DNA of 19,118 nucleotides from a virus (lineage: Duplodnaviria; Heunggongvirae; Uroviricota; Caudoviricetes), in IMG/VR virus record IMGVR_UViG_2897375277_000001, positions 1 through 19,118 of that record; one strand, given 5' to 3'. Of this stretch, positions 1 to 19,118 are shown in pieces. Position numbers and translations under genes: made by a program. The stretch's first letter is position 1. Every line of letters starts with the position of its first letter. Below the pieces are notes generated by a model. The model did no database searches and was not told where the DNA came from. It was given only the letters and a program-made list of their open reading frames with translations.

Positions 1-58
1 GACTCAGATGAATTTCTTACTCTGTGGAATATCACTTAATGTCACTTATAGGTAAACA

Positions 59-703: not shown

Positions 704-772
704 CGGAAATCTGAAACTGGTAAGCATATTTCTCGAAGCTGAAGATGATGCCAAATAATTTTGAAACATTAA

Positions 773-1781
773 ATGGCGAGGAGCGGAACTTCATGCAACG
801 ATCTTATTCGCAACTATATCTTTATGTGCGCTGAGCATGAAAATATTAATGCTATTGAATTATATGAAAATGAGTGGAAGAGCTTTGAAGATAAATACTG
901 GTCGGAAAAGCAACGCCGTGGACGTATTAATAAACCACGCATGGAGTGGCTTGTACATGCGACATTGCAATCAGAAAGGCAGCGTGAAATTGATCTGTCT
1001 CGCCTTTACAATGAGTATCGTGATTATGTAAGTAAGGACTTGCCTTCACAACGAGCAGATCTGCAAGTAAAGCGCCTCAAACAATATGCATCACAATATA
1101 AAGAATTGGTTGGTGGTTTTGGCACAACCCCCATCTCACACTTTGGACATCGCATCGCAGCCTATGATGTGACGACACTTTATCCGCTTGCTTTGTTCAT
1201 TTCGATAGCTAACATCGCCGATGATGAGAAAGCAGCCATGTATAATGATCTTGTCTCCTACGTAGTACGAAGAGCCGTATGTGGCCTGACGCCAAAGAAT
1301 TACAACAATGTATTTATGAATATATTGCGACACTTGTCTAAAACGGAAATTTCCAGTGTTGAGTTACGTAATATCCTCAATAGCTTAAATGGCGAAGCCT
1401 CACGTTGGCCTAGGGACTCAGAATTTCTCAACGCTTGCATCAATGCTCCACTTTATCCTGGCAGGCTCGACGCACCGAAAATGCGCTCAATGTTAACGGA
1501 ACTTGAAAGAGAACTTTGTCGCCAAGTGAAGACAGAAAAGCCTGATGTTCCAAATCTTTCTAATCTCGATATCGATCATCTTATGCCTCAAAGTTGGTAT
1601 TCCTGTTGGCCTCTCGAAAATGGTCATATGGTGACAAATTCAGATGCTACGGTATTGAACCAAATTGTTCTGTCTGGAACCGATCTTACCCCTGAACAGC
1701 TACTGGTAAGGAAACGGCAACAAGCGATAGCTACGTTGGGAAATCTAACTTTGCTTAACCTTAGCGTAAACCGTTCTGTTC
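773..1781 (+). pseudogene. GmrSD-family type IV restriction enzyme, central region plus DUF1524 nuclease domain, interrupted by IS66 after nt 1781
   Basis: Translation contains DIDHLMPQSW and GNLTLLNLSVNRSV, typical of DUF1524. The six-frame ORF continues to 1912, but 1782..1912 is IS66 terminal sequence; the native frame resumes at 4232. Confidence 0.65.
1774..1781. repeat. Left copy of 8-bp target-site duplication TTCTGTTC flanking IS66
   Basis: Identical octamer at 4224..4231 immediately outside the other IS end; 8 bp is the duplication size known for the IS66 family. Confidence 0.85.
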
Positions 1782-1818
1782 GTAAGCGTACAGCGAGGGC
1801 CGTATTGACGGGGATGTG

Positions 1819-3357
1819 TTATTCAGCTGGCAGTGCTATGCGCCACGGAAGCAGTTCGCTGACCCGGTTGACCGGCCAGTCTGCTATGACGCCAAGCACA
1901 TGGCGAAGGTAGCTTTCTGGATCCACGTCATTCAGTTTGCACGTCCCGATCAGGCTGTACAGTAGCGCTCCCCGCTCACCACCATGGTCAGAGCCGAAGA
2001 ACAGGAAGTTTTTACGACCCAGACTGACCGCCCGCAGGGCATTTTCAGCGATGTTGTTGTCGATTTCCACCCAGCCATCGTTCGCATAGTACGTCAGTGC
2101 CGGCCACTGGTTAAGTGCGTACGCGAACGCCTTCGCCAACTCTGAGTGTCGCGACAGGGTCTTCATCTTTTCACGCAACCAGCTTTCCAGGGATTTCAAC
2201 AGCGGTTTCGTTTTTCGCTGACGTTCAGCAAGCCGCTGCTCTGCCGGCATTCCCCTTATATCCGCCTCTATGGCGTACAACTGACCGATCTGCTCCAGGG
2301 CTTCTTCCGTCAGTGCTGACGGGATGCGGACGTGCACATCGTGGATCTTTCGGCGGGCATGAGCCCAGCAGGCAGCTTCCGTTATCCCACCATTGCGATA
2401 CAGCTCGTTGAACCCGGCGTACGCATCCGCTTGCAGCACACCGCTGAAGCAAGCAAGATGAGTCTGCGGATGGATGCCTTTCCTGTCCGGGCTGTAAGCG
2501 AACCACACTGCAGGTGCCAACGCTGACCCGGCATTGCGGTCATCACGAACATACGCCCACAACCGCCCGGTCTTCGTCTTCTTATTACCCGGCAGCAGTA
2601 CCTGGACCGGGGTATCATCGGCATGGAGTTTGCCGTCAGTCATGACATAGCCATGAAGCGCCTCTTCCAGCGGAGACAGCAGCCGGCAGCATGCATCCAC
2701 CCAGCCCGACAGCAGTGAACGGCTCAGCTCCACACCTTGCCGGCCGTATATTTCTGACTGGCGATACAGCGGGGTGTGCTCTGCATACTTCGAGGTCAGC
2801 ACGCGGGCCAGCAGCCCCGGTCCGGCGATACCCCGCTCGATGGGCCGCGAAGGTGCAGGTGCCTGCACGATGGCATCGCACTGAGTACAGGCATGTTTTT
2901 CCCGTACCGTCCGGATAACCCGGAAGGCGCTACGCATCAACTCCAGCTGTTCGGCGGTATCCTCGCCCAGATAGCTCAGTGAACCGCCGCAGTTCGGGCA
3001 GCACGGCGCCGCAGGCAACAGTCGCTTTTCGTCACGGGGTAGTGATTCAGGGAACGGCTTACGGGTGCGGGTCTGACGCAACGGACGCTGTACTGCCGGG
3101 TCATACACCCTACCAGTCAGCGTATCGCTCTCTTTCTGAAGCCGGTTCAGATCGGCTTCCATTTGTGCGATACGGCGGGAGACTTTTTCGGAACGACTGC
3201 CGAAGTTCATCCGGCGGAGTTTATCCAGCTGCGCCTGCAGATGGTCTATTTCGCGCTCCCGGTTGCTCAGCTTTTCCTGCAGGGCGTGGATCAGCGCTTC
3301 CTGTTCGGCCAGGCGCTGTTTCAGCAGGAAGATGTCGTCAGAAGAGATGTCGTTCAT
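1819..3357 (-). CDS. tnpC: IS66-family transposase TnpC
   Basis: 512-aa uninterrupted ORF; translation has the cysteine-rich region (CCPNCGG...CTQCD) and overall character I recognise as IS66 TnpC. Confidence 0.9.
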
Positions 3358-3406
3358 AAGCCCGTATTTTACCGGGCTTATTCTGTGACAACCAGGATAA
3401 AGAGAT

Positions 3407-3754
3407 TTACAGCATGGTCAGGGAGGTCAGCAGCCGCTTAGGCTGTCGCCAGTCGATACCTTCCAGCAGCATCGCCAGCTGCGCCTGCGTAAGGAACACT
3501 TTGCCATCACGGGCTGACGGCCAGGCGAAGCGCCCACGCTCCAGCCGTTTGGTCAGGAGGCACAGCCCGTCACCGGTGGACCACAGCAGTTTAACCTGAC
3601 TGCCGCTGCGGCCCCGGAAAATGAAAACATGGCCGGACATGGGATCGTCTTTCAGCGCCGTCTGTACTTTCGCAGCCAGGCCGTTGAAGCCATTTCTCAT
3701 ATCGGTGATACCGGCAACCAGCCAAATTTTGGTCCCGGAAGGTAACGGGATCAT
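3407..3754 (-). CDS. tnpB: IS66 Orf2 (TnpB)
   Basis: 115-aa ORF directly upstream of tnpC, 4-bp overlap with tnpA, size and position typical of IS66 orf2. Confidence 0.85.
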
Positions 3755-4152
3755 CGCTTCAGTTCCTGTATCAGCAGAGTCAGGAGCTTTTCGCTGACAT
3801 TGCCATTGAAGCGGAGCGTCCCGTGCCGGAACGTTACCTCACAGCTGATACTGAGGGTTTCCGGGTCCTCTGCGAGCGATTCTGGCTGTTCGGCAGCTGC
3901 ATCGAGAGTCACAGGAAGTAGCTGGGGGCTCTCTGAAGAAGGTAATAGCAGCTTTCCCTTGCGCCATTGTTGTCGCCATTTGAACAACAGATTGGCGTTA
4001 ATGCCATTTTCAAGAGCAAGTTTTGAGATGGATATCCCGGGTTCACAGGAGGCAGCAACGAGCTGCTGTTTAAATTCGGGAGGATAATTAGGGCAGCCTT
4101 TTCGCCTGCCGGGAGTCACATTTTTCTGCATATCTGACACTTTGGTTCCCAC
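3751..4152 (-). CDS. tnpA: IS66 Orf1 (TnpA)
   Basis: 133-aa ORF at the 5' end of the IS operon; the true start may be an internal Met. Confidence 0.8.
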   Translation of the reverse strand: MGTKVSDMQKNVTPGRRKGCPNYPPEFKQQLVAASCEPGISISKLALENGINANLLFKWRQQWRKGKLLLPSSESPQLLPVTLDAAAEQPESLAEDPETLSISCEVTFRHGTLRFNGNVSEKLLTLLIQELKR

Positions 4153-4223
4153 TACTTATTTGGTGGACACCACTTTGTCTAATTCGTCAGATTCTGACCA
4201 GACGGTTCAGGCTGTACGCTTAC

Positions 4224-4231
4224 TTCTGTTC
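4224..4231. repeat. Right copy of 8-bp target-site duplication TTCTGTTC flanking IS66
   Basis: Identical to 1774..1781. Confidence 0.85.
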
Positions 4232-4395
4232 AGAATGCTGTATTTCTGAAAAAACGTGATGCTCTCATCGTCCACACCAATCTACGACTGAACATTCCAC
4301 TTATAGTTAAGGATAAATGGGATGAGGATGAAATCCTGGAGCGGGGTAAAAAGTTGGGGGAAATTGCATTGAAAGTATGGCCAAAACACGATTAA
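4232..4395 (+). pseudogene. Displaced 3' fragment of the GmrSD-family gene (54 codons plus TAA stop at 4393..4395)
   Basis: After removing the IS and one duplication copy, codon cgt-tct-gtt-c|ag joins in frame and reads ...GNLTLLNLSVNRSV-QNAVFLKKRDALIVHTNLRLNIPLIVKDKWDEDEILERGKKLGEIALKVWPKHD*. It has no start codon of its own, so it is absent from the ORF track. Confidence 0.7.
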
Positions 4396-4418
4396 TGCAA
4401 TTAATAAAATAATTATAA

Positions 4419-4440
4419 CGGCCTTACATTAGTAAGGCCG
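4419..4440. terminator. Putative bidirectional intrinsic terminator hairpin
   Basis: Perfect 9-bp stem (CGGCCTTAC / GTAAGGCCG) with 4-nt loop ATTA, 24 nt after the restriction-gene stop; AT-rich on both sides (T-rich when read on the minus strand). Confidence 0.4.
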
Positions 4441-4490
4441 CTACTCACTATTAAATCCTTTAATTTGCATCAAGAACAGCAGTGTCAGCC

Positions 4491-4619
4491 CTAGGTCTCG
4501 GACTTTGTACCGCTTATCTTGTCTTCAAAAATCAGCTCGCATCCTGCACAGTTCAGCGCATTACGTTGTAGATCTGTGTTCTGGTCATTTATTGATACGC
4601 GTACATAGCCAATAAGCAT
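4491..4619 (-). pseudogene. Remnant of a Pin/Gin/Hin-family serine DNA invertase gene (first 42 codons only)
   Basis: Minus-strand translation from ATG at 4619: MLIGYVRVSINDQNTDLQRNALNCAGCELIFEDKISGTKSET*. This matches the N-terminus of Pin/Gin invertases as I recall them, including the catalytic-serine motif YVRVS. Only about 95 bp separate its end from the restriction-gene stop, so the remaining roughly 150 codons cannot be present. Confidence 0.75.
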
Positions 4620-4645
4620 AGTGGCTCCCTCTGACAAAAGCAGGA

Positions 4646-4981
4646 ATGATGCCATTTGCTCGTTATTTCTGCATTTTCATAAACGTTGGTTTGGGAGAAG
4701 GTGCTAACTGGGTTATGTTACCTGGAGGAATGATAATTCAGCGTGTTTATCTTGGATTTCCTGTCGGCACCAATGTAAGACACATAACTTTCCCCCGGTC
4801 GTTTACAACAACGAACTATTCCATCTCAATTAACTGGAATGATATCGGTACTGTAACAACTGAAACACAATCGCCAGCAAATGTGGCGGTTGTTCATCAA
4901 ACAAAATCATTAACAGGGGCCAGCATCTGGCAGGCAGGTCCCGGGGGATTTAATGTGGACATTATAGCGGTGGGGTATTGA
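4646..4981 (+). CDS. Alternative tail-fiber C-terminal cassette, silent in the current orientation
   Basis: The crossover site 4674..4699 lies within codons 10-18; it is followed directly by a Tfa gene and converges on the expressed fiber/Tfa pair, the G-segment-like layout. No fiber N-terminal constant region is attached. Confidence 0.55.
4674..4699. repeat. Left crossover site of invertible segment (12-2-12 invertase site, core TT)
   Basis: TTTTCATAAACG-TT-GGTTTGGGAGAA. Its inner half is the exact reverse complement of 6510..6521; the overall form resembles hix/gix-type sites. Confidence 0.6.
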
Positions 4982-4982
4982 T

Positions 4983-5411
4983 ATGTACGTATGGAGCGCT
5001 AAAGCAAATGGCTTTTTCCCCATATCGGAGAAAGAAAAATTTGAGGCATCAGGTCTGTGGCCTGATGATGGTGTAATAGTCAGTGAGGAAGAACATAAAA
5101 AGTTATTTACGGATATTCTACCAGGAAAACAGATTGGAACACTGAATGGAAAACCAGCACTGATAGATATTCCTCAGCCGACCAAAAAGGAATTAATAGC
5201 TATTGCTGAAGTTAAAAAATCCCAATTACGGGAAAAAGCTGACAGTGAAATATCCTGGCGTCAGGATGCTGTTGATGCTGATATCGCAACTGATGAAGAA
5301 ACTTCAACTCTCACCAAATGGAAGAAATACCGTGTGCTGCTGATGCGTGTTGATACTTCAACAGCACCCGATATTGAATGGCCTACGCCTCCGGCAGTTC
5401 AGGCCAGATGA
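4983..5411 (+). CDS. Tail fiber assembly protein (Tfa), alternative copy
   Basis: 142-aa ORF ending ...[23 protein letters not shown], the conserved Tfa C-terminal pattern. Confidence 0.8.
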
Positions 5412-5988
5412 CATCCGGCGTGGTGCTGGTATCTGTTACCGTCACCGCGTCAATGTAATCCAGCACGGCGTTAAGTCGGGTTGTTTCTGCCTGCGTCAGC
5501 TTCCGCCCGGCCTGTAATTTCAGTTGAATCAGACTGATGGAAGCCATTGCAGCATCAATCAGCGACTGGCGCTGTGCTTCTGCCGCGTCTACTGCGGCAC
5601 TATGCTGTGCCTCAGTATCTGTCACCCATTTCTCACCATCCCATTTATCGTATGGCGTTAACGGGACGATAGTGGTTGTATTTTCAGGGTAATCACCCGG
5701 AGCTGTGATTTCTTTTGATTCTCCCGTTTCGGTGTTATAGACAACTTCACCGCGATGGTCTGGCACATATTCCCATGAGTTTAAATCTGCCGAACGGCAG
5801 ATTGCATAACCAACCTTATGTGTGCCAGGAGCATCTAAACAGGAATATGCAGGGATACCGACACCCACAGCAAGATATTCAGTTGATGCAGAAATATACT
5901 CCCGTGTCTCACTGTCATAGTTATAAACGGTAATCTCTCCTGCCTTTGTGGCAATAAATTTATTATTTAAGATGGCGTTATACATCAT
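5383..5988 (-). CDS. Tail fiber assembly protein (Tfa), expressed copy
   Basis: 201-aa ORF ending ...[18 protein letters not shown]; start overlaps the fiber stop (ATGA); 3' end overlaps the convergent Tfa by 29 bp. Confidence 0.8.
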
Positions 5989-6812
5989 GCAGCCCTCACA
6001 ATGTAATTAAATGAAATATTACGTGGGCGTGTCTCTGCTGCACCGACAATACTGGTACTCAACCCCGTTGCCGTTCGTTTGTTATTTTTATTTCCTTCAA
6101 TCAGACAGTTGTAATCATCATTACCAATTAACGAATTGGTGGCATCAATACTGTCCGGGGACAAGGCATTAGTTGTGGAACTTAAAGTCAGCATCTCGTC
6201 TGAACTTGGAAGATTTTTTAATGGTGTTTCATTGCGTGAAATACCCGCGTAAAAAAAGGACTCATGCCTGTGAGCTTCAAAAGAGTCATTCTGAAGACTT
6301 AGCAAGGCTCGCCCCGCATCCACTCCACGTCCATCATCCCAGCCACGAATAAATTCACCGCGTAAATCAGGCAATTTATTGGTCGGGTAAGCCTTTGCCA
6401 GTTCCGGGTATTCTTCAGCAGAAAAAGCCGCACCATTGCATTTCAGCCAGCCTGTTGGCGGAGTGGCTGAAGGCCACGGAACAGGCACCCCAACCGGTAA
6501 TGCAGAGCCTTCTCCCAAACCAAGGTTTTCGAGAGCTGTTTTCACCGTGCCATCCGATTTGATATCGCCAAACGGATTCTTGCGGCTTAACAGCAGCGCA
6601 CGAAGCGCGGTAAGCAACTGGTCGTGCCGCGCCTTCTCCAGGCTGGCACCGGAGGCCTCCACCACGCTGCAGAGTTCTTCCTGCAACATGTCAAAGTAGT
6701 CATCATCCAGATCGGTGGCAGGCGTGCCTGTCTGGGGGTTACCACGGGTAAAACCGTTCTTACCCGGGCCGAACTTATCCTTCTGCGCGGTTTTCGTGTC
6801 TATACGATGCAT
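5985..6812 (-). CDS. Tail fiber protein (constant N-terminus plus variable C-terminus currently in the expressed orientation)
   Basis: 275-aa ORF with GGAG 7 nt before the ATG; the C-terminal region has [19 protein letters not shown], which resembles the receptor-binding region of Mu S / P2 H-type fibers. The crossover site 6510..6535 lies inside the gene. Confidence 0.75.
6510..6535. repeat. Right crossover site of invertible segment (12-2-12, core AA)
   Basis: TTCTCCCAAACC-AA-GGTTTTCGAGAG, which closely resembles the hixL sequence as I recall it (TTCTTGAAAACCAAGGTTTTTGATAA). Confidence 0.6.
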
Positions 6813-6815
6813 GGA

Positions 6816-7400
6816 TTACTCCGGATATTTAAAAATTACGTAGGTATGCGACGGGCAGAGTTTGTTAAGCACACATTCGACGACGGTGTCGCCCCAGACA
6901 CGCAGCGCGGAATCACAGGGATCGCCACATGTCATCCAGGTGGTGTTGGTGGCGGCTGGCATGTTGACCTGCCAGTAATACCGCCATTCCGGCGCATTCA
7001 CCGCGTCAGTACAGGCAGATGAGCAGGTGAAAGTGCTTTTATCGTATCGCGTGATGGTGGCATCCGGTCTGCCCAGGGCAGCAAGCTGTGCAAGGTAAAA
7101 ATCCTCATTGATGCCGCCCGCCAGATTAACCTTCGCATCCAGCCGTTGCTGACGCTGGCGAAGGGTCTGCGTTCCCGCCGGAATACATTCATCCGGCAGG
7201 CCGCACAGACGCTCCCAGCGGTTTATCAGTTCAGTGGTGGTGCGCGGATCCAGCTCCCGCATCAGGGCATCCGCACGCTGATGAACGCGGGTTAATGACG
7301 GTGCCGCACCGGCAATCGCCGGATCGCTGACTGACCACGCCGGACCGGGCGGCAACAGTGCCGACAACAGACGGATATAATCATCGTTTGTCACGTCCAT
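6816..7400 (-). CDS. YmfQ/DUF2313-family tail protein (Mu gp48-like)
   Basis: 194-aa ORF between the baseplate J-like gene and the tail fiber, overlapping its upstream neighbour; composition and position fit. Confidence 0.55.
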
Positions 7401-8449
7401 GAAATCGTCCCCAGAACTGCCAGCTCATTTTTTGCAATGGAGATATTGTCCGCCGGGGCAAGCAACTGATGGCTGTATTCCCCGTTCGCACCGGAAATCG
7501 CTTCACTGATACGTGACACCTTCAGTTCTCCCTGCGGATAACCATCACGCAGCAGGAACGAACGCAACTCCGCGGTGATGGCGGCTCGTATTTCCGGTGT
7601 ATCCGGCGTCACACGGATATGAAAATCCACTTTATGCGCCACCGGCCTGAATACATACAAATCAGAGCCTGCCACCGGGGCCAGTGGCTCGATATGTTGT
7701 CTTGCCGCCGTTTCCGTTGATTCTTCCGGAATGGGATTAATCAGGTCACTGCTGGCAATCATCACACCGACAGTTCCCGTTCCCATCCAGTGACGGTATG
7801 TCCATGCGCGGGTAATGCCGGGCACTTCTTTAGCCCAGACGACATAGTCCCCGTCAGCCCCGCCCTGAGGCGTCCAGTAATACCGCTCAATGACGCGGGC
7901 GCGCCACGTTTCCAGCTCTTCAGTATCAAATCCACCTGTCAGGGTATCTGCCACGCCGGAAGACGGCAGACCATTCACCGGCGTGACCAGGATTAATGAC
8001 GTACCGTCGTCAGCGTTACCGACCGCGCCTGCACTTGAGCAGGCGATCGGCACGCGCAGGACACCACCGGAGCTGGTTGCATCGGCAGTTGCCGTGTACT
8101 GAACCAGGTCATCGCGCTGAATAACACTCCCGGCGGTCACCTTCAGGCCATCGCTGACACCTTCCCAGCGCATATACCCGCTGGCAGTCGTGGCCCCCTT
8201 GCGCGGACACCGTTTCATCGCAGCATGTCGCGCCAGCCAGGACTCATCGCACAGGTCAGGCAGCATGTTCATTGCCAGATAATCGATGTACCCGTAAACC
8301 GTATGCAGCGCCGCCGCATACACCTTTGCCCGCACGTCTTCATCCATGCGCCGGAGCGTGTCGCTGACGTCCAGCCTGGCGAATAAATCGTTACGGAGCA
8401 TACTGATATTTTCTGCCAGCGTCGGGCGCTGAAATTCACTGTCCGCCAT
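7391..8449 (-). CDS. Baseplate J-like protein (Mu gp47 / P2 gpJ-like)
   Basis: 352-aa ORF in the expected position, 14-bp overlap with the upstream gene. Confidence 0.7.
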
Positions 8450-8864
8450 GCATTATCGCACTCCACAGATCATCAAAAGAAATCATTACCGGTCCGTCAC
8501 GACGCCAGAGAGTGATACTGTTACCCAGTTCATTAATCCCGGTGCGGCGGATATCCAGATCAATACGGGACACCACACCGTCATCAATCATCCATTGCAG
8601 GCATTCGCGGATATACCCCCTTACCGTCTGCACCAGCTGATTGGTCAGTTTGCCGCGCTGAAGCAGCCACAGCCGGGAGCCGTAACGGTCATTCTGTACC
8701 GCAGGCCAGGTATCCCCCCACCATCCCATCGGGACGTCGGCATTGTCATCAGGCTCCGCCCGCCGCCAGGTAAACAGGGAAATCACCACGGCGCGGGTCA
8801 GCGGATCCAGCGGTGCGCTGGCGCAGGTGCGTTTACCGTTCACCGTCAGCCACAGTTCCATCAT
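8436..8864 (-). CDS. Phage GP46-family baseplate protein
   Basis: 142-aa ORF, overlapping neighbours on both sides, expected position after the spike gene. Confidence 0.6.
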   Translation of the reverse strand: MMELWLTVNGKRTCASAPLDPLTRAVVISLFTWRRAEPDDNADVPMGWWGDTWPAVQNDRYGSRLWLLQRGKLTNQLVQTVRGYIRECLQWMIDDGVVSRIDLDIRRTGINELGNSITLWRRDGPVMISFDDLWSAIMHGGQ

Positions 8865-9409
8865 GCCTCCATCGCTTTATCCGGTTTGTCGGTGTTACTG
8901 CCCTGACCGTTCTCTCTGTGACGATGGCCGTTATAGGCAAGCCGCATCGCTGACATGGTGGTGCCGCCGGAGTCGCACAGGTCTTTCACCTGTCCGGTCA
9001 CTTCCAGGTCCATTTCAAAACGTGCTTTAGGTGAATTGCGAAACGTGATCGTTTTACCTGCACCGTCCACCACGATCCCCTCCCGGGTCAGCGTCACGGA
9101 CTGCCCCTGATCGTCATAGACAGCCACCTCACCCGTCTGCAGCCCTTTCAGGCGGTAGCGCCGGTCCGACACCGTAACAACCACCGCATGAGAACGGTCG
9201 CCATCCGGAAACAACACCACCGCTTCCGCACCGCTGTTTGCCCTTGAGGTAAAACCGTAGGGTTCAAGATGTTCAACCCCTGCTTTGGGTTCACCGGCAA
9301 TCAGGGACACATCCACGGTCTGACATTTCGTGGCGGCACTGATGCTTTTCACCACGGCCCGCCCAATCAGGCCGAGGAGTTGTCGCTGCATGGCTTCAAT
9401 CGTCCTCAT
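8861..9409 (-). CDS. Baseplate assembly protein V / spike (Mu gp45-like)
   Basis: 182-aa ORF; the N-terminal pattern MRTIEAMQRQLLGLIGRAVV...EPYGFTSRANSGAEAVVLFPDGDRSH is typical of the phage baseplate V family. Confidence 0.7.
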   Translation of the reverse strand: MRTIEAMQRQLLGLIGRAVVKSISAATKCQTVDVSLIAGEPKAGVEHLEPYGFTSRANSGAEAVVLFPDGDRSHAVVVTVSDRRYRLKGLQTGEVAVYDDQGQSVTLTREGIVVDGAGKTITFRNSPKARFEMDLEVTGQVKDLCDSGGTTMSAMRLAYNGHRHRENGQGSNTDKPDKAMEA

Positions 9410-10488
9410 CAGAACGGATCCTCCTGTACTCTGGCTTTTTTCTTTTTCCGCGAGCCGGGGGCTTCGGGTTCAGGCAGATAAGCATCAGGCGGGCCGACAC
9501 GGATTTCCGTCAGGGTGCCGTTCTGGTCCTGAGTAAACGTGACTTCCGAAACAAGCAGTTCGGTATTGTCGAAACCACAGACCGGATCGAAGACAATCAC
9601 CCGCTGGTTGGGCTGCCACAGCGTACCGTTACCCTGTCGCCAGCCCTGCACCACATAGGTGGTTTCATCCGTCCGCGCCGCCCGTTGCCGGGCTTCAAAG
9701 TCAGCACGGGCAATACAGCCTGCCCCCGTGGCCTGCCCTGTCTGCCTGATATACATCGGACGGTAACGGGCAATAAATGCGTCCTCTGTGCGGGCCCGCA
9801 GCGCGGTGGTGGTGGCCTCACCGAAATCATCGTCGTTTCCGGCACGCTGCCCCGCCACCTGGTAAACTGAAAACCGCTCCCGGATACTCTTCTCCGTATC
9901 ACAGGAAAGGATGTTTTCCCCAAGTACCAGCGCGGTATGTGCCCGCGTTGAGCCAATACCGCCAATCACCAGCCTGCCGTGCGGGTCGTCATAAGCCAGC
10001 GCCTGCTGCTGACCGAGTATTTTGTTGATTACCTCAATCACCGTTTCACCGTGATCAGGCTGGACATCAGGAATAACACCCGACGGCGCACCGCTGTTCA
10101 CCACCTCAATGCCGAAAGGCGCAGCAAGCGCCTGCGCAATCTGTACCAGCGATCGTCCGTTAAACTGTGTCGGTTCGGCTGCACAGTCAATCAGGTCAGC
10201 GGTCAGACTACGTCCGGCAATACCGGTGCTGACCGAACGGGCATCGTAACGAACGGGCGTCGCCTCCACCCAGCCAGTGATCACCAGCTCATCACCAATC
10301 AGCACTTCCACTTTTGAACCGTTTTTAATGCGCGGCTGAAGCGTGGTGATACCCTCATCTCCCGGCCACTGGCGGGTGATCTCCACACTGAAATCCCGCG
10401 CCAGTCGTTCAACACCGGCACCGATGCGCACCGATGTCCAGCCATTCCACTCCCGGCCATTTACCCGTAGCGTGACGTTATCGTTCAT
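9409..10488 (-). CDS. Mu P (gp44)/P2 gpD-like tail protein
   Basis: 359-aa ORF, gene order and translation character. Confidence 0.55.
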   Translation of the reverse strand: MNDNVTLRVNGREWNGWTSVRIGAGVERLARDFSVEITRQWPGDEGITTLQPRIKNGSKVEVLIGDELVITGWVEATPVRYDARSVSTGIAGRSLTADLIDCAAEPTQFNGRSLVQIAQALAAPFGIEVVNSGAPSGVIPDVQPDHGETVIEVINKILGQQQALAYDDPHGRLVIGGIGSTRAHTALVLGENILSCDTEKSIRERFSVYQVAGQRAGNDDDFGEATTTALRARTEDAFIARYRPMYIRQTGQATGAGCIARADFEARQRAARTDETTYVVQGWRQGNGTLWQPNQRVIVFDPVCGFDNTELLVSEVTFTQDQNGTLTEIRVGPPDAYLPEPEAPGSRKKKKARVQEDPF

Positions 10489-11812
10489 TGCACTGGCACC
10501 TTCAGAGGGATCACCGGCACAAAGCCGGGATGCGTAATGGCATTACGCCGGATAATGTCCCCGTCACGCGCCGCGTTATCAAACCAGGTCGCCGCCAGCA
10601 CCAGCGCGGGTAAAACCTCATCCGGCGTGCGCTGAATGATCCGTGCAGACTGTTCAAGGCGCGTGTTGATATCCGCATTCAGATCTGCTTTCACCCGGCG
10701 CAGCGCCAGAAACAGCGCATCACTGGTTGTACGGGACAACTCCTTATCAATTGCCGTATTCAGTGTGTCGCGAATGTCAGTCAGTTCTTCCCACGTTGGC
10801 AGGTCAACCGTGCTTTTCACCGCCGGTGCATTGTTCAGTGCCGGATGCGTGACGGAAGGCCAGCCAGTGCTCTGCGCGGGTGTTGTTGCCTGCCCCACTG
10901 CGGCATTCTGCATCACCGCGGAAGTTGTTGGCGCAGGCAATCGGGTGACGGCATACGCCGCTTCGCTGATTGCGGTCGTACGAAGGATGCTGGCAACCAC
11001 GTTACGCTGCTGTGTCGCCGTGGCGGTGGTTTTACTGTCCGTTTTCCAGACGCCGCGCGGTTGCAGATCGCTGCCAAGGCTGACACCGGAAAGCGTTTTG
11101 ATCATGGTGACCAGGTCGCTGGCGTTACCATAAAGGCGTTTCCCGGTACGCCACATTTTCTGCACCTGCTCAACGAAATTTTTGCCTGACGATGGCGGCG
11201 GCAGAAGTACCGAGATATCCCCTGCAACAGCCTGGCGGCATCCGATACGGCAGAATCCACCACTTTCATCGCATCAGAAACATACCCAAGCATTGTGCCG
11301 GCATTACCGACGACGTCGTTCTGCACAAAATCTGCCACGCCATCGATACTGAAACTACTGAAACTGTCACTGATGCAGTCATCCAGTGCAGAACAGGATG
11401 ACATCAGCGTCTGCGCCGTCGCCGCACCTGATGTGGGGTAAGAGAGTTCTCCCGCTTCGACAAACTTCAGGTCAAAGCGGACAATACGCCCTTCACTCTT
11501 CGATGTGCTGACCCGAACCTCTCCGTCAACACAGACTTTCAGCTCACCGTAAGTCGGATGGACAAGCGTGCCAGGACCGGGTTTATTCAGCGCGTCAATC
11601 AGGCGATCGCGCTGGTCAAAGCAGTCATCTCCCACCACATAAGCCGTGATGGACGGGCGGAAAGTGATTTTCCCCAGGTCTTCGGTATAGGGTTTGTCGC
11701 GGTTCGGGTATTCGTGCGTTTCCACACGACGACCGGTTCCCGTACTTTCTTCTTCAACCTTAAACGGCACACCGCGAAATGACGCGTCCTGAAGTCTGTC
11801 TTTCCACGTCAT
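10485..11812 (-). CDS. Mu N (gp43)-like DNA circulation protein, with an apparent frameshift near 11219..11222
   Basis: Likely start is ATG at 11812..11810 (MTWKDRLQDASFRGVPFKV) with GGAG 6 nt upstream. The frame of ORF 11102..11854 turns junk-like after ...SDAARLLQG, and the neighbouring frame reads on as DISVLLPPPSSGKNFVEQVQKMWRTGK...; the switch is at a CCCC run (plus strand). Confidence 0.55.
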
Positions 11813-11827
11813 ATAAACTCCGTACAT

Positions 11828-11849
11828 AAAAAATCCCACCGGAGTGGGA
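11828..11849 (-). terminator. Putative intrinsic terminator/attenuator between tape measure and N-like genes
   Basis: Minus strand reads TCCCAC-TCCG-GTGGGA followed by TTTTTT, 24 nt after the tape-measure stop. Confidence 0.45.
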
Positions 11850-11872
11850 CTCATTAACAGATTAATTTTTCA

Positions 11873-13696
11873 TTACCTGCCAAAGCACGTATAGCCAACA
11901 TCATGGCTGACATCAAAACCGCTGGATCGCGTTTCCATAACCCGCATCCCCGGAGGCGAATTCACAAAAGAGACCTTGATCTCACCATCAACTTTTGGCG
12001 CAGAAGCTTTGTTAATCATGAAGGGATTCGAGCCTGTGGCACCGGAGGCGTTGTTTGACTGAGCCGGATCCACCGCCGGATAAGGTGTGTATCCCGCGCC
12101 GGTATTCCCGTCCCATAAGCATCATAAGCACCCGCGCCCCACTGCGCAGAGTTAATGCATCGACCGTGTCACCGGAACTGTCGGTAAACCACTCAATAAT
12201 TGGCTTCAGCTTGTCCCACATATCCTGAAACCACTTAACAACCGGTCCCCAGTTATTGATCACCATCCCCAGCGGCGACCAGGCAAAAACCTTCTTAAGA
12301 AGTTCCCAGCCAGTCTCAAAATAAGGACCAATGGTTTCCAGAGTTTCTTGAAATAAGGTCCGACAACATCCCAATTAGTGATAATTAATCCCGCAGCCAG
12401 GGCTATCGCCGTCGCAATCATGCCAATCGGCGTCATCGACATGATCCTGCTGACAATACTGATGGCACCGCCAACGCCCATCAATCCCAGTTTCAGAATC
12501 GCAAGACCGGCAGCAAGCCCGACGACACCGCGAATAACCCGGGGATTTTCATCCGCAAACTTCGTGAATTTTTCCCCTAACTCCCCCAGCCATTGCGTGA
12601 TATTTTTGGCGTCACCAGAAAATGCGCCGCCAATAGCCGCAAGGCCGTTAGTTGCGGTCCCCGTCATTGCCTCCCACAGGTTGGACAGCGTACCAAGCTG
12701 GGCCTGAACACGTTTATTCAGGCTGGCCTGTTTATTCATCTTCTGCTGGATCTGATCGTAGCCATCCTTTCCTTTATCGATTAGTGCATTGACCACCTGA
12801 AGGGTTTCGGCATCATCACCAAATATTGCCTTAAGTACACCTGTTCGCTTAACGTCGGTCAGTTTTCGCAGCTTTGCCAGTTGCCTGAACATGTTATCAA
12901 GACCGCCAAAACTTCCTTTGCCGTCAGTAAAATCGAGCTGTACCCCGAGTTTCTGGCGGGCCATGACTTTATTGACGTCCCTGATTTTCTTAACGCTTAA
13001 TCCGGACTGGATAACTTTTCGCAGGGCATTACCTGCCGACTCCCGTTCATCCCCATCTGATCCATCATAACGCTGATGGGGGCAAGGCTCTGTGCAGCCT
13101 GAAGACCGTCCTTGTTCACCATCTTCAGAACAGAACTGGTTTTAGTGAAGAAGGACAACATGTTGTATCGTCAACGCCCAGATAAAACGCCTTCTGGATA
13201 GTGTCGAACAGCCCCATCATGTCTTCTGACGCCGTTCCGGTAGCATCCTGCATCTTTGCAGCAAACTCAGCAGCCGCTTCCGGTGTTTTTTCAGTTGTAC
13301 CGCAAGATAAGCTGTCGCTTTACCCACACCGCCAAGAATGTTTTCTGCGGGATCCCTGACGCACCAGCATCTGCATCATGTTCTGGAAATCAGCCGTTGT
13401 ACGGGTAGCTGGTTACCCAGGCCAATAGCCAGTTTATTGATGTCCTGAAAGCGCTTTCCGACCTCACCGTTCGCATCCATCATGGCAACTTTCAGCCCGT
13501 GGCGGCGTTTTCCTGATCGGCATAAGATTTCAGGAAAGCGTCAGACCCGCAGCCAGTCCGCCACCAAGCGCCAGCCCACCCTGTGACGCTTCTTCCGCCT
13601 GGCGTTTAAATCCCGGATTTTCTTTTGCATTTTCGACAGCGCGGGAGAAAGCCTGTCGACACCGGTGATCAACGCCTTAAGCTCAAATTCAGCCAT
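11873..13696 (-). CDS. Tail tape measure protein, with multiple apparent frameshifts
   Basis: Start ATG 13696..13694 (MAEFELKALITGVDRLSPALSKMQKK) with GGAG upstream. ORFs 12260..12964, 12012..12374 and 11873..12073 are successive pieces of one protein in different frames; 12965..13696 has no ORF of 60 aa or more in any frame yet reads as tape-measure sequence across frame switches. Confidence 0.6.
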
Positions 13697-13835
13697 GTGT
13701 GCGTTTCTCCTGCTCTATCCTGTTTGCCTGACTGACCAGCAAGGAATTTCACTGATCGGCATATTCAGCAATTCGAAGGGATTAATGCGCCAGTAGCTGC
13801 GCAGTCAAAGAAGCGATCAGTGAGGTATTCAGCCG

Positions 13836-14102
13836 TCAGGCCTGGAGGAAAAAACCGGCCACAAGCCACGCCGCTGCATTCAGGTCTGCCGGAGACATCT
13901 GGTCGACAGAGCTTTGCGGCACTTTCGCCAGCCGCACAATGTATTTCGACACCACATGCGCCAGAAGTCTGACGGACTCATCCTGATTCATCTGGTAGGG
14001 ATACCCAGCTCGCGGACATCCTTCCGGTGGTTCATCAAACTCCAGTACGGAGAGTGTCTCGCCATGAGCAATAATCGGTTTCTTTAACTCAAGCTCTTTC
14101 AT
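13836..14102 (-). CDS. Tail assembly chaperone (Mu gp41 / P2 gpE-like)
   Basis: ATG at 14102..14100 (MKELELKKPIIAHGETLSVLEFDEP...); lies between tube and tape measure; carries a slippery heptamer 2 codons before its stop. Confidence 0.55.
   Translation of the reverse strand: MKELELKKPIIAHGETLSVLEFDEPPEGCPRAGYPYQMNQDESVRLLAHVVSKYIVRLAKVPQSSVDQMSPADLNAAAWLVAGFFLQA
13848..13854 (-). other. Candidate programmed -1 ribosomal frameshift site T-TTT-TTC in the chaperone gene
   Basis: Minus-strand zero-frame codons GGT-TTT-TTC immediately before ...LQA-stop; the -1 frame stays open for 29 more codons to a TGA at 13765..13767. Confidence 0.4.
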
Positions 14103-14454
14103 TACTGGTAATCCCTTCTTCACCGTGGAACTCAAGATCAACCGTGCCTTCTTCGGCATTATGGTTCGCTTCGCCGTGCAGCCAGGCAGACGACAGTACA
14201 TAGACCTGACCGTTCGCCAGCTCGGCAGTGATTGTCATCTCATCAGACGAGGTGATTTTGCTCACCGGAAAATTCTTCGCACCTTGAAGGTCCCTTTGAC
14301 ATAAGGCGCACGGTGAGTTTCCTTGCGGTCCACTGAACCGTCCAGGCCGATGATGTCATCATTGACCGTCCTGTTCATGGCACCTCAATGCCGCCGGTCA
14401 GCGATAGCTGCTGACCGTCAATTTTGAAATAACAGGTTCCCCGATACGGGCCAT
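14089..14454 (-). CDS. Tail tube protein, with apparent frameshifts
   Basis: Start ATG overlaps the sheath stop (TAATG at 14457..14452). Translation pieces MARIGEP..., FKIDGQQLSLTGGIEV and TVNDDIIGLDGSVDRKETHRAPYVKGTFKV fall in different frames; one switch is at a CCCC run at 14439..14442. Confidence 0.45.
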
Positions 14455-16072
14455 TATGCGGACTCCTCTGAATACTGAAGACGGAACTGGTTAACCACGG
14501 CAAAGACACGCAACTGGTTAACATAGTCAGGCGGGAACAGCGTGTTCAGGCGGTTCGGATCGCTGGCATCACGCTCCACAACCAGGTACTGCTTAAAAAG
14601 TTCGTAGTTTTCCACGATCCCGCACGCTCAAGCTGACGGTAGGTTGCCAGCAGTTCCCTTTGATCACCGCCTGGGTGACAATCGCCTGACCGGACCAAAG
14701 CGGTACCGTCGCTGGCAAGCTTGTGACGCCCGTACTTACTGGTAATGACGGATTTCAGTTTGCGCAGTACATACGCACTGGTATGCAGCGTCTCGCTGTC
14801 GAGGTAGCTGTTATCCGCAACCCCGTAAGCGTTTTTCCTGTACGTGGTGACATCACGCTGAATGCGCAGTACCCGCTTTCGACATACGCCGTTGCCACGC
14901 CATGAGACAGCAGGGTCTGTTGTTCGGTCATCGTGAACCGTTTCCCCTTCGGCGCAGGCAGCATACCCACCAGCTCACCGTCTGCGTGGACGTGCCGGAT
15001 CGTTGCGGATAAACACCGCTGCGCGGGCGGTACGGCTTGCGCCAGCTCGTCGGCAGCGTCTGGTCTCTTTTCGTACCCGCCAGGGTAATGTGCTGCTGGT
15101 TAAACTGGTCACCTGCGTCACCAGTTCTGACAGCGTGCCGATCTTTGCCGTATACACATGACCATACAGCTGACGCGCATAGCTCCAGCGACCGCTGGTA
15201 TCGTTCATCTCGGTCACCAGCGTGTTAACGGAGCCGTGTCGTTGAACGGCAGGCCGATATAATCAAACGGCTCATCCGCCATTGCAGCCACCGCGCCGGT
15301 GAGAACAGGAGAACCCGTTCCGGCGGTACCCGTCGCCACGGCAATCTGTACGCCGCTGGCAGCACTTCGCCCCACCAAGCCGTAGTAATTGAGGCTGACA
15401 GGAATTTCATTCCGCAAAGCCCTTATGACGCGCGGTCAGTGTGACCACGCCAGCGAAGATGAAGCTGTAAACGCAGAGTCGGAACGGCATTGATGGCATC
15501 CTGGATACTGCCGGCAATCGTCGCGACGTTATCGCCATTGGTCACCGGTGCCTGCACGCGGGTACGTCCACATAAACATTCACCGTGCGGTTTCGGTTGC
15601 CGCCCGGTCACCGTCAGCGTAACCGTTGCCGCCGCGCCTGTGGCTTCCGGAACGGCAATCACATACAGCTCGCAAACGGGTCAGTCTGGCGATAAGCCTC
15701 GACCATACGCGCCAGCTGACTTCCCGCACCACAAATCTGGAGTGCATAGTCTGCCGACGGCATCAGTACCAGACTGTTGGCAACAATCTCTGCACCGTTA
15801 TTGCATGACCAATCAGCAGCGATGCTCCGCTGTCCTGTGCAGTATTCGCCGCCTGGTTATCCATTTCCGCATAAACAACGGAACCAGCGTATTCGACGGA
15901 ATGGTGTTAAAGCTTATCGTCATCGGTATTCACCTTTTTATTCACGCGCCGGATATCACCCGCTGCTTCACGGCGCAGCCAGTAGTTGTTCTCGTCAACA
16001 TTTCGCCCTTCGCGGCAAAGGTCGCCGCGGCAGGGTCAGGAACTGACCGCCCTTTAACAGGTTGACAAACAT
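14455..16072 (-). CDS. Tail sheath protein, with multiple apparent frameshifts
   Basis: Start ATG 16072..16070 with GAGGA upstream. The translation across frames reads ISFNTIPSNTLVPLF-YAEMDN...NTAQDSGASLLIGHAIT... and MTEMNDTSGRWSYARQLYGHVYTAKIGTLSELV..., which looks like a contractile sheath. Only ORFs of 80 aa or less survive in this 1.6-kb stretch. Confidence 0.55.
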
Positions 16073-16074
16073 GA

Positions 16075-17130
16075 GGATCCTCAGAAGGAAGGGTTATTTC
16101 GGTGTGATGTTCGATATCGCCGTCAGGCCGTTACGGGCTCGAGATAATCAACATCAATCGCCAGCGTTTGCAGTTCATCCAGACTGTTCAGATCATCCTG
16201 CTGGCGGGTATCGTCTTCAGTCAGCTCGCTGATGACCGAAAAATCGAACTGATAAATCAGCTCATGACGATTCAGATCCAGCAGCGTGCCGCCGTCATAG
16301 GTAATCGGGTTACCGCACGCCTCCGGGTTCCAGCCAGCAGAGCCTTAAGAGCATCTGCGGACATCGTCCACCACATCATACGAGGCAAACTGACCGCGCT
16401 CATCACGCCCGTTACTCAGTATGACAACCACGGAGAAACCTCTTTCAGCTCCTGCAGTAGTCGGTCTGGCTTTGTTTCTCCCGAGAATCATCACCCGGTA
16501 CAACATATGCCGCCGGGAGTTTCAGCTTCCGACCTCCGGCAGATTTTGAACTGGGCGCGCCTGCAACCCGGTTTTCAAAATACGGACAGCGGGCACGCAG
16601 TGCAGCAATAACAGGCGTCAGTTTCATCTGTGTCGTCGCTCCGGCTTCAGTGATTACGCAATTCCGCGCCAGAAAATAGCGTGTCCAGCTGCGGTTCTTT
16701 TCAAGAGTTTCCACCATGAAGTTATTACGTGGAGCCAGTCGCCAGCCGCTGCCACCGGATGCACCACGATGATGGCTGCGACGACGCTTTGCCCTCTCTT
16801 CACGCCATAGAACAAAAAGCCGGATAAAATCACGGTGATGCGGCGTTTCCCTCACCATTACGCTGGTTAGGGGCTATACGAGCCATAAACCGGGCGATGT
16901 TTACTGGCTCTGGGTACCATATAACCAATCGAACGTGCCAGGCGTCCGGTCTGATAACCGGGGTTTTCACCCGGTGCCGACCGCGCACGGCGCATCACAG
17001 CCGACGGCATCACGCATATGACGCTGACCAATCGTGACAAACGCCGCCGGACACGGGCGCGGTTAAAGCGCATCTCCGCGGCTGCTGAAATCAACGTGCA
17101 AAAAGGAAGTCGCCATTGTTGCCTCCGTGA
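16075..17130 (-). other. Fragmented minus-strand virion morphogenesis / tail completion genes (not resolved)
   Basis: Protein-like minus-strand translation in pieces across frames (for example ...GNPITYDGGTLLDLNRHELIYQFDFSVISELTEDD...), with no long intact ORF. Confidence 0.3.
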
Positions 17131-17136
17131 CTCTGC

Positions 17137-17499
17137 CTACATTCGCCCAGCTCCGTACACTCCAGCAGCAGAAAGCGCCGCGCACCGTTCAGATCGCGCT
17201 GACGTTTCACCGGTACACACTATCACCGCAGACCACCTCATAATCAGCGGTGATCCCCCGGCGGTAGCGAATGGTGATGTAATGGGTGATGGCGTCTCCG
17301 GTCTGCGCGGTTTCCTGCCAGGTGGTGGCACTGGTCTGGACAACCTTCGCCCATGCCGGAACGCAACCGGGTATTGAGGCTCCACGCCAAAGTTATCCGA
17401 GGGCATATCCACCCGCTGGCGGATCAGGACGCGTTTATTCAGTTCGCCGGGGTCCGGCAGAATGTAGGTTGCGCTGGTCTGCGCCTGACGAATTTTCAT
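17137..17499 (-). CDS. Head-tail adaptor / head closure protein, with apparent frameshift
   Basis: N-terminus MKIRQAQTSATYILPDPGELNKRVLIRQRVDMPSDNFG resembles the adaptor family; the ORF then turns proline/arginine-rich and junk-like while another frame reads TGDAITHYITIRYRRGITADYEVVCGDSVYR. Confidence 0.4.
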   Translation of the reverse strand: MKIRQAQTSATYILPDPGELNKRVLIRQRVDMPSDNFGVEPQYPVAFRHGRRLSRPVPPPGRKPRRPETPSPITSPFATAGGSPLIMRWSAVIVCTGETSARSERCAALSAAGVYGAGRM

Positions 17500-17817
17500 T
17501 GCGGAAAGTACCTGTACGGGCCGACAAGCCAGCCAAAACTCTGCGGCATGTCGAGTTTCTCCACTTCCGTAACCGAAGAGCGGTTTTCGTAAAAATGGCT
17601 GATAAGCATCAGCATCCCCAGACGAATATCATCGGTAGTGCAGCCCGTCCGGATCGCTGTCCGGAATGGTTTCATCCGGTGCATAGAGCTTCCGGTTCAG
17701 ATACGTTTCCGTCCGCTTTTGTGCCGCACATGCCAGCAGTTGCAGATGGCGGTCATCAGTATCGAAATCCTCATCCAGCCGGAGTTGGGCTTTAATCTCT
17801 TCCATTGTCAGAAGCAT
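17496..17817 (-). CDS. gp6-like head-tail connector protein, with apparent frameshift
   Basis: N-terminus MLLTMEEIKAQLRLDEDFDTDDRHLQLLACAAQKRTETYLNR (ORF 17629..17817) and C-terminus ...DDIRLGMLMLISHFYENRSSVT...GPYRYF (ORF 17496..17684) are in different frames. Confidence 0.55.
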
Positions 17818-18016
17818 ACTCAGCCCTCTTTACTGGTCGTGGCTTTTTCTCTTTTGCCGCTTTACTGCTTTTTGCACTGATTCCGCGCTCTGCTAACCCG
17901 GCCTGAAGTGCAATCTCCTGCACCCGGGCAGGAAGCGCCCCGTCGTCATACTCACCCCGAATGACCTCAACACGCATACCGTCCGGTGACCATTTCAGAT
18001 CTTGTTTCAGGATCAT
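17792..18016 (-). CDS. Hypothetical small phage protein downstream of the capsid gene
   Basis: 74-aa ORF with ATG 18016..18014, overlapping the connector start; no recognisable motif. Confidence 0.3.
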   Translation of the reverse strand: MILKQDLKWSPDGMRVEVIRGEYDDGALPARVQEIALQAGLAERGISAKSSKAAKEKKPRPVKRAEYASDNGRD

Positions 18017-18038
18017 GATTCTTCACCCGTCAGAACAG

Positions 18039-18058
18039 GGGGCGCGGTTCCGCGCCCC
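18039..18058 (-). other. GC-rich stem-loop immediately after the capsid stop (possible processing/stability or attenuating element)
   Basis: GGGGCGCGG-TT-CCGCGCCCC, a perfect 9-bp palindrome (effectively 8-bp stem with 4-nt loop), starting 7 nt after the capsid TAA at 18066..18068; no U-run follows on the minus strand. Confidence 0.4.
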
Positions 18059-18065
18059 TGAGTGA

Positions 18066-19118
18066 TTACGCCGCTGCAATCTTCAGCAGTTTGATGGCCT
18101 GCGAATCGACCAGCATGCCGCCGGTGCGTTTGGTGGTATAAAAACCGACAAACGGTTTATTGGTGTACGGGTCACGCAGAATGCGGGTGCCGATACGGTC
18201 AACGATGGTGTAACCCCGTTTGAAGTTACCAAATGCAATGGCTTTCGCATCAGCGGCGATATCCGGCATCTGTTCGTTTTCAGCGATACCGTAACCCGCC
18301 AGAGAGGACGGCTGCCCCAGCTCCAGCCCCGGACGCCACAGATAGTTACCCTCGCTGTCTTTCAGCAGACGGATGGCAAACAGGGCTGTTGTTGTTCATC
18401 ATGAACTTCGCACCGGTGCGGTGTGCCTTACGCAGCGTGTAAATAAGTTTGATAATGGCGTCTGCGGTCACCGCAGTCGCTTCGCCGGATACAATATGCT
18501 GAAGTTTGCCGAACGCCCGGACCTTATCGGTTTCATCAGTGGATTCATACGCCAGGAACCCTTTCGGCTTCTTGGTGCCATCGCCTGAGGTAAAGGCAAT
18601 TTCTTCCTGTTCGGCAAATTCGGTTGCCAGCTCGCTGTTGATCCAGGCCTCCACGTTGAAGAAGGCATCGTCCAGCATTTTCTGGGTGGCCTGCGGGTTG
18701 CCGTAGATTTCCCCCATGAGAGGTTCAATCAGCTCCAATCTGGAGGTGGCAGTCTGGGATCGCGTATCCGTTTCCCCCACCCATCCGGAAGCCGTGCCGC
18801 CCAGATTCACCAGTTTTTTGTAGTCGGAACCGCCAACGGTGATCACCGTGGCTTCCTGGCGCATCACCACTTCATCTTTCAGCAGGGTGAGAATGTTGCG
18901 ATCCAGCGCTTCCGGCACGGCATAGCCACCGTCTTCATCGGTGCCCACCTGCAATGCCTTACGCTCCAGATCGCGCAGACCATCTTCACGGCCTTTACGC
19001 AGGAAGCCCACAAACGCTTCTTTATGCTCGGTGGCCAGTTTATTTTGCGCACCACCTGCCGGACGTTTCAGCTCAAGCAGCTCTTTTCAAGATCGCTTTT
19101 GAGGTTTTCCAGCTCGCT
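18066..19118 (-). CDS. HK97-family major capsid protein, 5' end outside the window, with at least 2 apparent frameshifts
   Basis: ORF 18346..19011 reads ...FLRKGREDGLRDLERKALQ...GGYAVPEALDRNILTLLKDEVVMRQ...; the C-terminus ...LWRPGLELGQPSSLAGYGIAENEQMPDIAADAKAIAFGNFKRGYTIVDRIGTRILRDPYTNKPFVGFYTTKRTGGMLVDSQAIKLLKIAAA* is in another frame. Switches near 18385 (AACAACAAC region) and 19085 (AAAA run); protein-like translation continues to the window edge. Confidence 0.7.

Follow-up and report, generated by a model that had tools for sequence, protein, structure and literature searches.

The 19,118-bp DNA record CP024288.1, deposited as "Escherichia albertii 2014C-4356 plasmid unnamed6" in assembly GCA_002741375.1 and analysed here over its whole length (the window), carries a block of phage structural genes, and it raises the question of why so many of them are broken. 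On the minus strand the open reading frames (ORFs) were unbroken from 4646 to about 11.2 kb, and from there up to the end of the window they were reduced to fragments of 50–250 aa. The 19 kb consists of a GmrSD gene with an ISEc8 insertion, followed by the tail/head end of a prophage of the SfI/SfII/SfV type. The frameshifts may be read as the decay of a real prophage or as errors in the consensus sequence. We are highly confident that they are consensus errors, which lie on the arms of a spurious contig that duplicates a region of the chromosomal prophage in the alternate orientation.

The entire record was contained in the chromosome of the same assembly (CP024282.1, 4184009-4205088, locus L010). 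This locus was reached through the intact baseplate protein of window 9409-10488, which is also encoded on CP024282.1, and the frameshift-fragment ORF 12260-12964 was carried by a single contig in the gene-position index, GCA_002741375.1:CP024288.1. Both ends of the record were intragenic, one in the GmrSD gene and the other in the capsid gene. There was no unique flank at either end, since the non-phage flank with GmrSD and ISEc8 also lies within the chromosomal region, and comparison of the record's own sequence revealed no terminal redundancy left in it. In PLSDB the record appears as NZ_CP024288.1 (100% identity, "plasmid unnamed6, complete sequence") with the flags circular and non-mobilizable, and the MOB-suite typing given there listed neither a replicon nor a relaxase. 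No replicon or partition gene was found among the window genes, all of which could be assigned to GmrSD, ISEc8 or the phage structural set. In contrast, unnamed1 and unnamed2 of 2014C-4356 are conjugative plasmids with IncX4 and IncF replicons and with relaxases. With no replicon and no sequence distinct from the chromosome, CP024288.1 is not a plasmid but a redundant copy of 19 kb of chromosome.

The window was then compared base by base with the reverse complement of the chromosome copy by blastn. Window 1-4701 aligned with 589-5293 of that copy (0 mismatches, 10 gap columns), and window 6508-19118 aligned with 7100-19800 (0 mismatches, 92 gap columns). The stretch between them, window 4681-6528, aligned in inverted orientation with 7120-5273, with 2 mismatches and 0 gaps. 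Both of these mismatches represent the single position that differs between the two 26-bp sites bordering the inverted segment, and this position stays with the outer flank in both molecules. Overall, no substitution separated the two copies; relative to the chromosome, the window lacked 98 bases, had 4 extra and carried one precise inversion. Every gene was of full length in the chromosome copy (Table 1). The capsid-to-tape-measure genes are intact in this strain, and pseudogene calls in 11.2-19.1 kb and in 1-800 of the record are not credible.

The indels were confined to two arms on either side of a clean core (Table 1). Between 11218 and 19083 there were 91 indel events, of which 89 were deletions of one base; the other two were a 3-base deletion (17955) and a 1-base insertion (18383). 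Counted in bases against the chromosome copy, 91 were missing, 1 was extra and 0 were substituted. Nine further events fell in 1-800. The density per kb along the right arm was 1, 3, 11, 14, 20, 29 and 12, and then 2 in the last 1.1 kb. The core reached about 3.9 kb to the left and about 4.7 kb to the right of the inverted segment and was roughly centred on it, and the errors became denser away from the flipped segment, up to the maximum of 29 per kb. If the 102 indels had been placed uniformly, the probability of an indel-free core of 10.4 kb would be P = 1e-35.

An earlier note on this DNA, made from the sequence alone, had reported frameshifts from about 11.2 kb onward. They were found as described but had been understated, the four lesions localised there being only a small part of the 91 events. 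All four are indeed one-base losses (CCCCC to CCCC at 11219-11222 and again at 14439-14442, AAAA to AAA at about 15872, and TTTTT to TTTT at 19084-19087). The note's ten clean ORFs between 4646 and 11165 do tile without a break or an indel, but the tenth (10485-11165) is the 3' fragment of the N-like gene split at 11218. The insertion sequence (IS) was rightly called intact, with 0 indels and 0 substitutions across 801-11217. The claim that frameshifts cluster in the capsid-to-tape-measure half stood for the 91 events of that half, and a second patch at 1-800, at the left end, had been missed.

The spectrum of the indels was equally restricted. All of the missing bases (98 of 98) lay within homopolymer runs of at least 2 bases in the chromosome copy, the run lengths being 2 (35 bases), 3 (32), 4 (20), 5 (8), 6 (2) and 7 (1). 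By type, 43 were C, 33 G, 13 T and 9 A. The share of runs affected grew with run length, as for C2 (3%), C3 (17%) and C4 (42%), while singleton bases, which make up 54% of the right arm, were never deleted (P = 5e-31 for all 91 deletions avoiding them). Stop codons arose in the window by frameshift only. Long-read errors are predominantly short homopolymer indels, were mostly false deletions in a profiled assembly, and pseudogenise genes (PMC12007338). Here, one-base indels, their location in homopolymer runs, a clean independent copy and an error-prone platform were all present, as in long-read consensus error. The resemblance to homopolymer under-calls in unpolished PacBio continuous-long-read or nanopore consensus, which are likewise dominated by deletions with a rate rising with run length, is close. 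Unlike the usual under-calls, those in CP024288.1 affect just two arms of a single small contig, the rest of the hybrid assembly being polished, and the local failure of polishing would come from redundancy with the chromosome rather than from low genome-wide coverage.

These data leave hardly any probability for genuine pseudogenisation, in which the prophage end would exist in a second, real copy on a plasmid or circle and be decaying by frameshifts. Prophage remnants do often decay, and the record was deposited as circular and complete, with its plasmid contigs said to be closed (PMC5754485). However, decay would have to account for 102 indel columns without one substitution relative to the strain's own chromosome, for a deletion to insertion ratio of 98:4, for 67 of the 98 deletions falling in runs of just 2-3 bases, and for stops that arise by frameshift alone. 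It would also have to spare the adjoining 10.4 kb, where the tail, baseplate and IS genes are just as dispensable yet bore 0 lesions, in a molecule that lacks a replicon or partition gene, ends inside the GmrSD and capsid genes and shares its IS insertion and target site duplication (TSD) with the chromosome. Hypermutation by mismatch-repair deficiency or slippage was rejected as well, because it cannot give a lesion-free block of 10.4 kb between arms with 1-3% indels and no transitions.

The comparison with other genomes also spoke against inherited lesions. The region, a late operon of an SfI/SfII/SfV-type temperate myovirus, was matched in more than 1300 complete E. coli genomes, the best match being H22 (98.8%; 8119 window bases aligned to 8209 reference bases). 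Window 4224-19118 differed from H22 (NZ_CP120563.1, 2911930-2926914; locus L001) by 10 substitutions and 92 gap columns, all of the latter between 11218 and 19083, and window 1-1781 added 10 further gap columns, all inside 1-800. The ten substitutions were all present in the chromosome copy and are true strain differences. Against each of nine relatives, ranging in identity from 95% (phage SfI) to 100% (the strain's own chromosome), the window lacked 91 bases and had 1 in excess in the right arm, with 0 indels in the core. Only these totals per locus were used, since site-by-site agreement counts are unreliable for reverse-oriented loci owing to gap placement within runs (locus L010 itself scored 51). 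None of the window's indels was shared with any of the relatives, and the lesions were absent from H22 and the eight other loci. Phage SfI, as a case of real divergence, differed from the window arm by 168 substitutions and no additional indel; substitutions without further indels are what real evolution looks like in these genes. The two checks proposed earlier, for a duplicate in the assembly and for the same prophage in other genomes, therefore both favoured the view of uncorrected long-read errors in a duplicated region, and decay, the alternative named there, fails on the comparison with the strain's own chromosome.

The one structural difference between the two copies was the orientation of a segment of about 1.84 kb in the tail-fibre region (Table 1). 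It is bounded by two 26-bp sites that are imperfect palindromes, inverted relative to each other and with the same central dinucleotide (TT/AA), which is the architecture of hix, gix, cix and pix sites. The exchange lay at the site centres, and the outer half-site difference (G4685) was retained by the flank in either orientation. The constant N-terminal 96 codons of the fibre gene lie outside the segment and the variable C-terminus lies inside. In the chromosome the N-terminal part is instead joined to the gp53-like C-terminus, which gives a 194-aa fibre accompanied by the 142-aa chaperone. E. coli H22 and GCA_014911385.1 (locus L005) likewise had the window orientation in their chromosomes, and the opposite orientation was found in locus L009 and the E. 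albertii chromosome. Paired sites, both orientations, and opposed sets of fibre C-terminus and chaperone were found, as in systems of the Gin/Cin/Pin/Hin type. An intact adjoining serine invertase was absent, 41 of its 184 codons being left.

SMRTbell and assembler chimeras are able to make inverted joins, and the truncation of the local invertase gene would suit such an origin, in which the inversion would be a product of the library or the assembly rather than of site-specific recombination. This is extremely improbable. Both breakpoints were located exactly at the central dinucleotides of the 26-bp hix/gix-like sites with the outer half-sites kept, and the orientation of the window exists in the chromosomes of H22 and GCA_014911385.1 with the same truncated invertase.

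Strain 2014C-4356 was sequenced on the PacBio RSII (P5/P6 chemistry, 10- and 20-kb libraries), assembled with HGAP3 and corrected with Pilon 1.21 using MiSeq 2x250 reads, the genomic sequences being verified by optical map; the 19,118-bp contig was given as one of six "associated plasmids" (PMC5754485). Consensus errors on a spurious contig could have arisen in this procedure as follows. Part of the sequenced DNA would have had the segment in the other orientation, and HGAP3, unable to thread the flipped reads through the chromosome contig, would have placed them in a separate small contig. Reads across the inversion junctions would map uniquely to this small contig and polish about 4-5 kb on either side of the segment, which would be the core (801-11217). 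Beyond the reach of these reads the contig could not be told apart from the chromosome, and PacBio and MiSeq reads would align to the accurate chromosome copy at least as well as to the contig, or ambiguously. Quiver and Pilon, with no usable evidence on the arms, would have kept the draft consensus there, with an error of about 1-3% that consists nearly entirely of under-called homopolymers. We infer that a minority read population built the contig and that ambiguous mapping made its polishing fail. As the sole structural difference, the flipped segment would explain both the separate contig and the clean centre.

A further possibility is that the errors are artefactual and that every cell nevertheless holds a true second locus in full copy, which would make it a segmental duplication, 19 kb or longer, with the fibre segment flipped. 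Some E. coli genomes have 2-4 places that match the module, and repeats are hard to polish. We regard this as very unlikely, because a copy at full depth (200-500x) would give reads anchored in unique flanks and a polished consensus, whereas the contig has no unique flank and lies wholly within the chromosomal region; moreover, the chromosome was checked by optical maps.

Three points weigh against consensus error on a spurious flipped contig. First, the plasmid contigs were stated to have a coverage of 200-600x and overlapping ends and to be closed (PMC5754485), and if 200-600x of reads had been placed uniquely on the CP024288 contig, its arms should have been polished. Second, the local invertase is only a 41-codon remnant, so that ongoing inversion needs an invertase elsewhere in the genome. 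Third, only 2 indels were found in the last 1.16 kb (17943-19118) as against 12-29 per kb before, and this drop at the record end does not fit a simple picture in which coverage decays with distance. Polishing of 17943-19118 may have drawn on reads from a second prophage with the same capsid module. The drop coincides with a mosaic boundary, as phages phi467 and vB_EcoM-606R7 matched solely window 17943-19118.

Table 1. Features of the window (CP024288.1, 19,118 bp), with coordinates, strand and state relative to the chromosome copy.
Feature	Position	Strand	Remarks
Left error-bearing arm	1..800	.	7 missing and 3 extra bases; rate about 1.2%, as in the right arm
GmrSD gene			9 indel columns; 618 aa in chromosome
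ISEc8 8-bp target duplication	1774-1781 and 4224-4231		TTCTGTTC
ISEc8 (IS66 family: tnpA, tnpB, tnpC)	1782..4223	-	Terminal inverted repeats; sits in the 3' part of the GmrSD gene
Clean core	801..11217	.	0 indels, 0 substitutions, IS included; identical to the chromosome copy save the inversion
Pin/Gin/Hin-type serine invertase remnant	4491..4619	-	41 codons and stop; Pfam Resolvase, 42 aa
Left 26-bp crossover site	4674..4699	.	TTTTCATAAACG TT GGTTTGGGAGAA; central dinucleotide 4686-4687
Invertible segment, about 1.84 kb	4686..6523	.	Opposite orientation to the strain's chromosome
Silent alternative set	4687..5411	+	gp53-like fibre C-terminus (ORF 4646-4981) and 142-aa chaperone (4983-5411)
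Tail-fibre assembly chaperone	5383..5988	-	200 aa; paired with the expressed fibre
Tail-fibre gene as joined here	5985..6812	-	275 aa; Collar domain
Right 26-bp crossover site	6510..6535	.	TTCTCCCAAACC AA GGTTTTCGAGAG; central dinucleotide 6522-6523; inside the tail-fibre gene
Five intact baseplate genes (YmfQ/gp48, baseplate J, GP46, gp45/V, P-like hub)	6816..10488	-	0 indels
DNA-circularisation (Mu N-like) gene	10485..11812	-	442 aa in chromosome; split by 1 deletion at 11218
Right error-bearing arm	11218..19118	.	blastn against locus L010: 0 mismatches, 92 gap columns
Tape-measure gene	11873..13696	-	611 aa in chromosome; 12 indel columns
Tail assembly chaperone and tail tube	13836..14454	-	3 deletions (chaperone) and 4 deletions (tube); tube 118 aa in chromosome
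Tail sheath gene	14454..15923	-	498 aa in chromosome; 27 indel columns
Six genes: DUF2635, tail terminator, neck, head closure, head-tail connector, 66-aa hypothetical	15907..18016	-	Indel columns, in this order: 5, 14, 14, 2, 2, 4
Major capsid gene, 3' 1.05 kb, cut by the record end	18066..19118	-	2 indel columns; 401 aa in chromosome

The errors in the arms have been carried over into protein records. WP_099588296.1 (88 aa; 13836-14102, minus strand) is the 89-aa tail assembly chaperone with 7 residues scrambled by three 1-base deletions in its gene (net -3). WP_099588297.1 (74 aa; 17792-18016, minus strand) has a 3-base deletion and a frameshifted, extended C-terminus of the 66-aa protein. 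Both RefSeq proteins are error products. At the other end of the record, the errors of the left arm split the GmrSD/DUF262 gene into the ORFs 59-703 and 773-1912, where the chromosome has one ORF.

The chromosome copy has the same ISEc8 insertion with the same TSD, and the insertion is absent in E. coli H22. A further ISEc8 copy with the same three transposase proteins was found on the IncX4 plasmid unnamed1. A core centred on the IS, as would be expected from a minority variant with an IS insertion, was considered and rejected, because the chromosome has the same IS and TSD and the inversion is the only structural difference. To the right of ISEc8, the homology of the invertase remnant to the full gene of 184 aa, which is present in loci L006 and L011, stopped at 4498 (blastn against L006), and the GmrSD island takes the place of the rest of the invertase gene. 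The same truncation was found in E. coli H22, loci L005 and L009, and the E. albertii chromosome.

The truncation bears on whether the prophage still switches its fibre. Cross-complementation among invertases of this group has long been known, and in the classical systems the 5' part of the invertase gene contains the Fis-dependent enhancer. Because both orientations were found among genomes with the identical truncation, inversion evidently goes on without the local enzyme, presumably in trans. We slightly favour the view that the prophage still flips its fibre host-range segment within one E. albertii culture, driven by a Pin/Gin-family invertase elsewhere in the genome. The 5' remnant of the invertase may have been kept because it carries the recombinational enhancer. 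The search for a trans-acting invertase covered unnamed1 and the initial 50 kb of unnamed2, in neither of which one was annotated, and did not extend to unnamed3-5 or to the chromosome beyond L010. If true, trans-driven fibre switching would be a modest addition to what is known of these systems.

Invertible segments driven by serine invertases are well known from Mu (G/Gin), P1 (C/Cin), e14 (P/Pin) and Salmonella (H/Hin). The segment described here is like them in its inverted 26-bp sites, the exchange at the central dinucleotide and the opposed fibre sets behind a constant N-terminal part. In those systems, too, the invertase gene lies directly outside the segment, but here no more than 41 of its 184 codons remain. 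In the capsid-to-tape-measure module this prophage shares 95-97% identity and the gene order with SfI, SfII, SfV and vB_EcoM-689R6, temperate myoviruses of Shigella and E. coli; the genes of these phages are all intact, unlike those of the window. In place of the invertase remnant and GmrSD island of this prophage, SfI has gtr O-antigen genes. Salmonella ST64B showed a more distant likeness.

In its other aspect CP024288.1 resembles spurious alternate-haplotype contigs deposited as plasmids, being contained in the chromosome, without a replicon and with one structural variant. The record is held in GenBank, RefSeq and PLSDB as a complete circular plasmid (CP024288.1/NZ_CP024288.1), which amounts to database contamination. 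It has seeded the two artefactual RefSeq proteins and inflates the counts of E. albertii plasmids and pseudogenes. Biologically nothing in it is novel, and its use is as a warning on a contaminating record, together with the side observation on fibre switching. Invertible segments may repeatedly give rise to spurious small contigs when long reads are assembled; a literature search found no report of HGAP contigs arising from invertible tail-fibre segments. Another non-mobilizable PLSDB record, NZ_CP148394.1 (E. coli Z1323HEC0010 "plasmid" pZ1323HEC0010-4, 19,141 bp; locus L015), consisted of nothing but the terminase-to-baseplate part of a phage of this type. The window and this record matched as far as the fibre crossover site (window 6524), where the record itself ends, as do two larger records.

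With the artefacts removed, the E. albertii prophage end and the adjoining GmrSD island differed from E. coli H22 by 10 substitutions and 0 indels in 15 kb. This near-identity indicates very recent sharing across species. The integrase of the H22 prophage adjoins a gene fragment of the isocitrate/isopropylmalate dehydrogenase family, which suggests an e14-like attachment site in icd.

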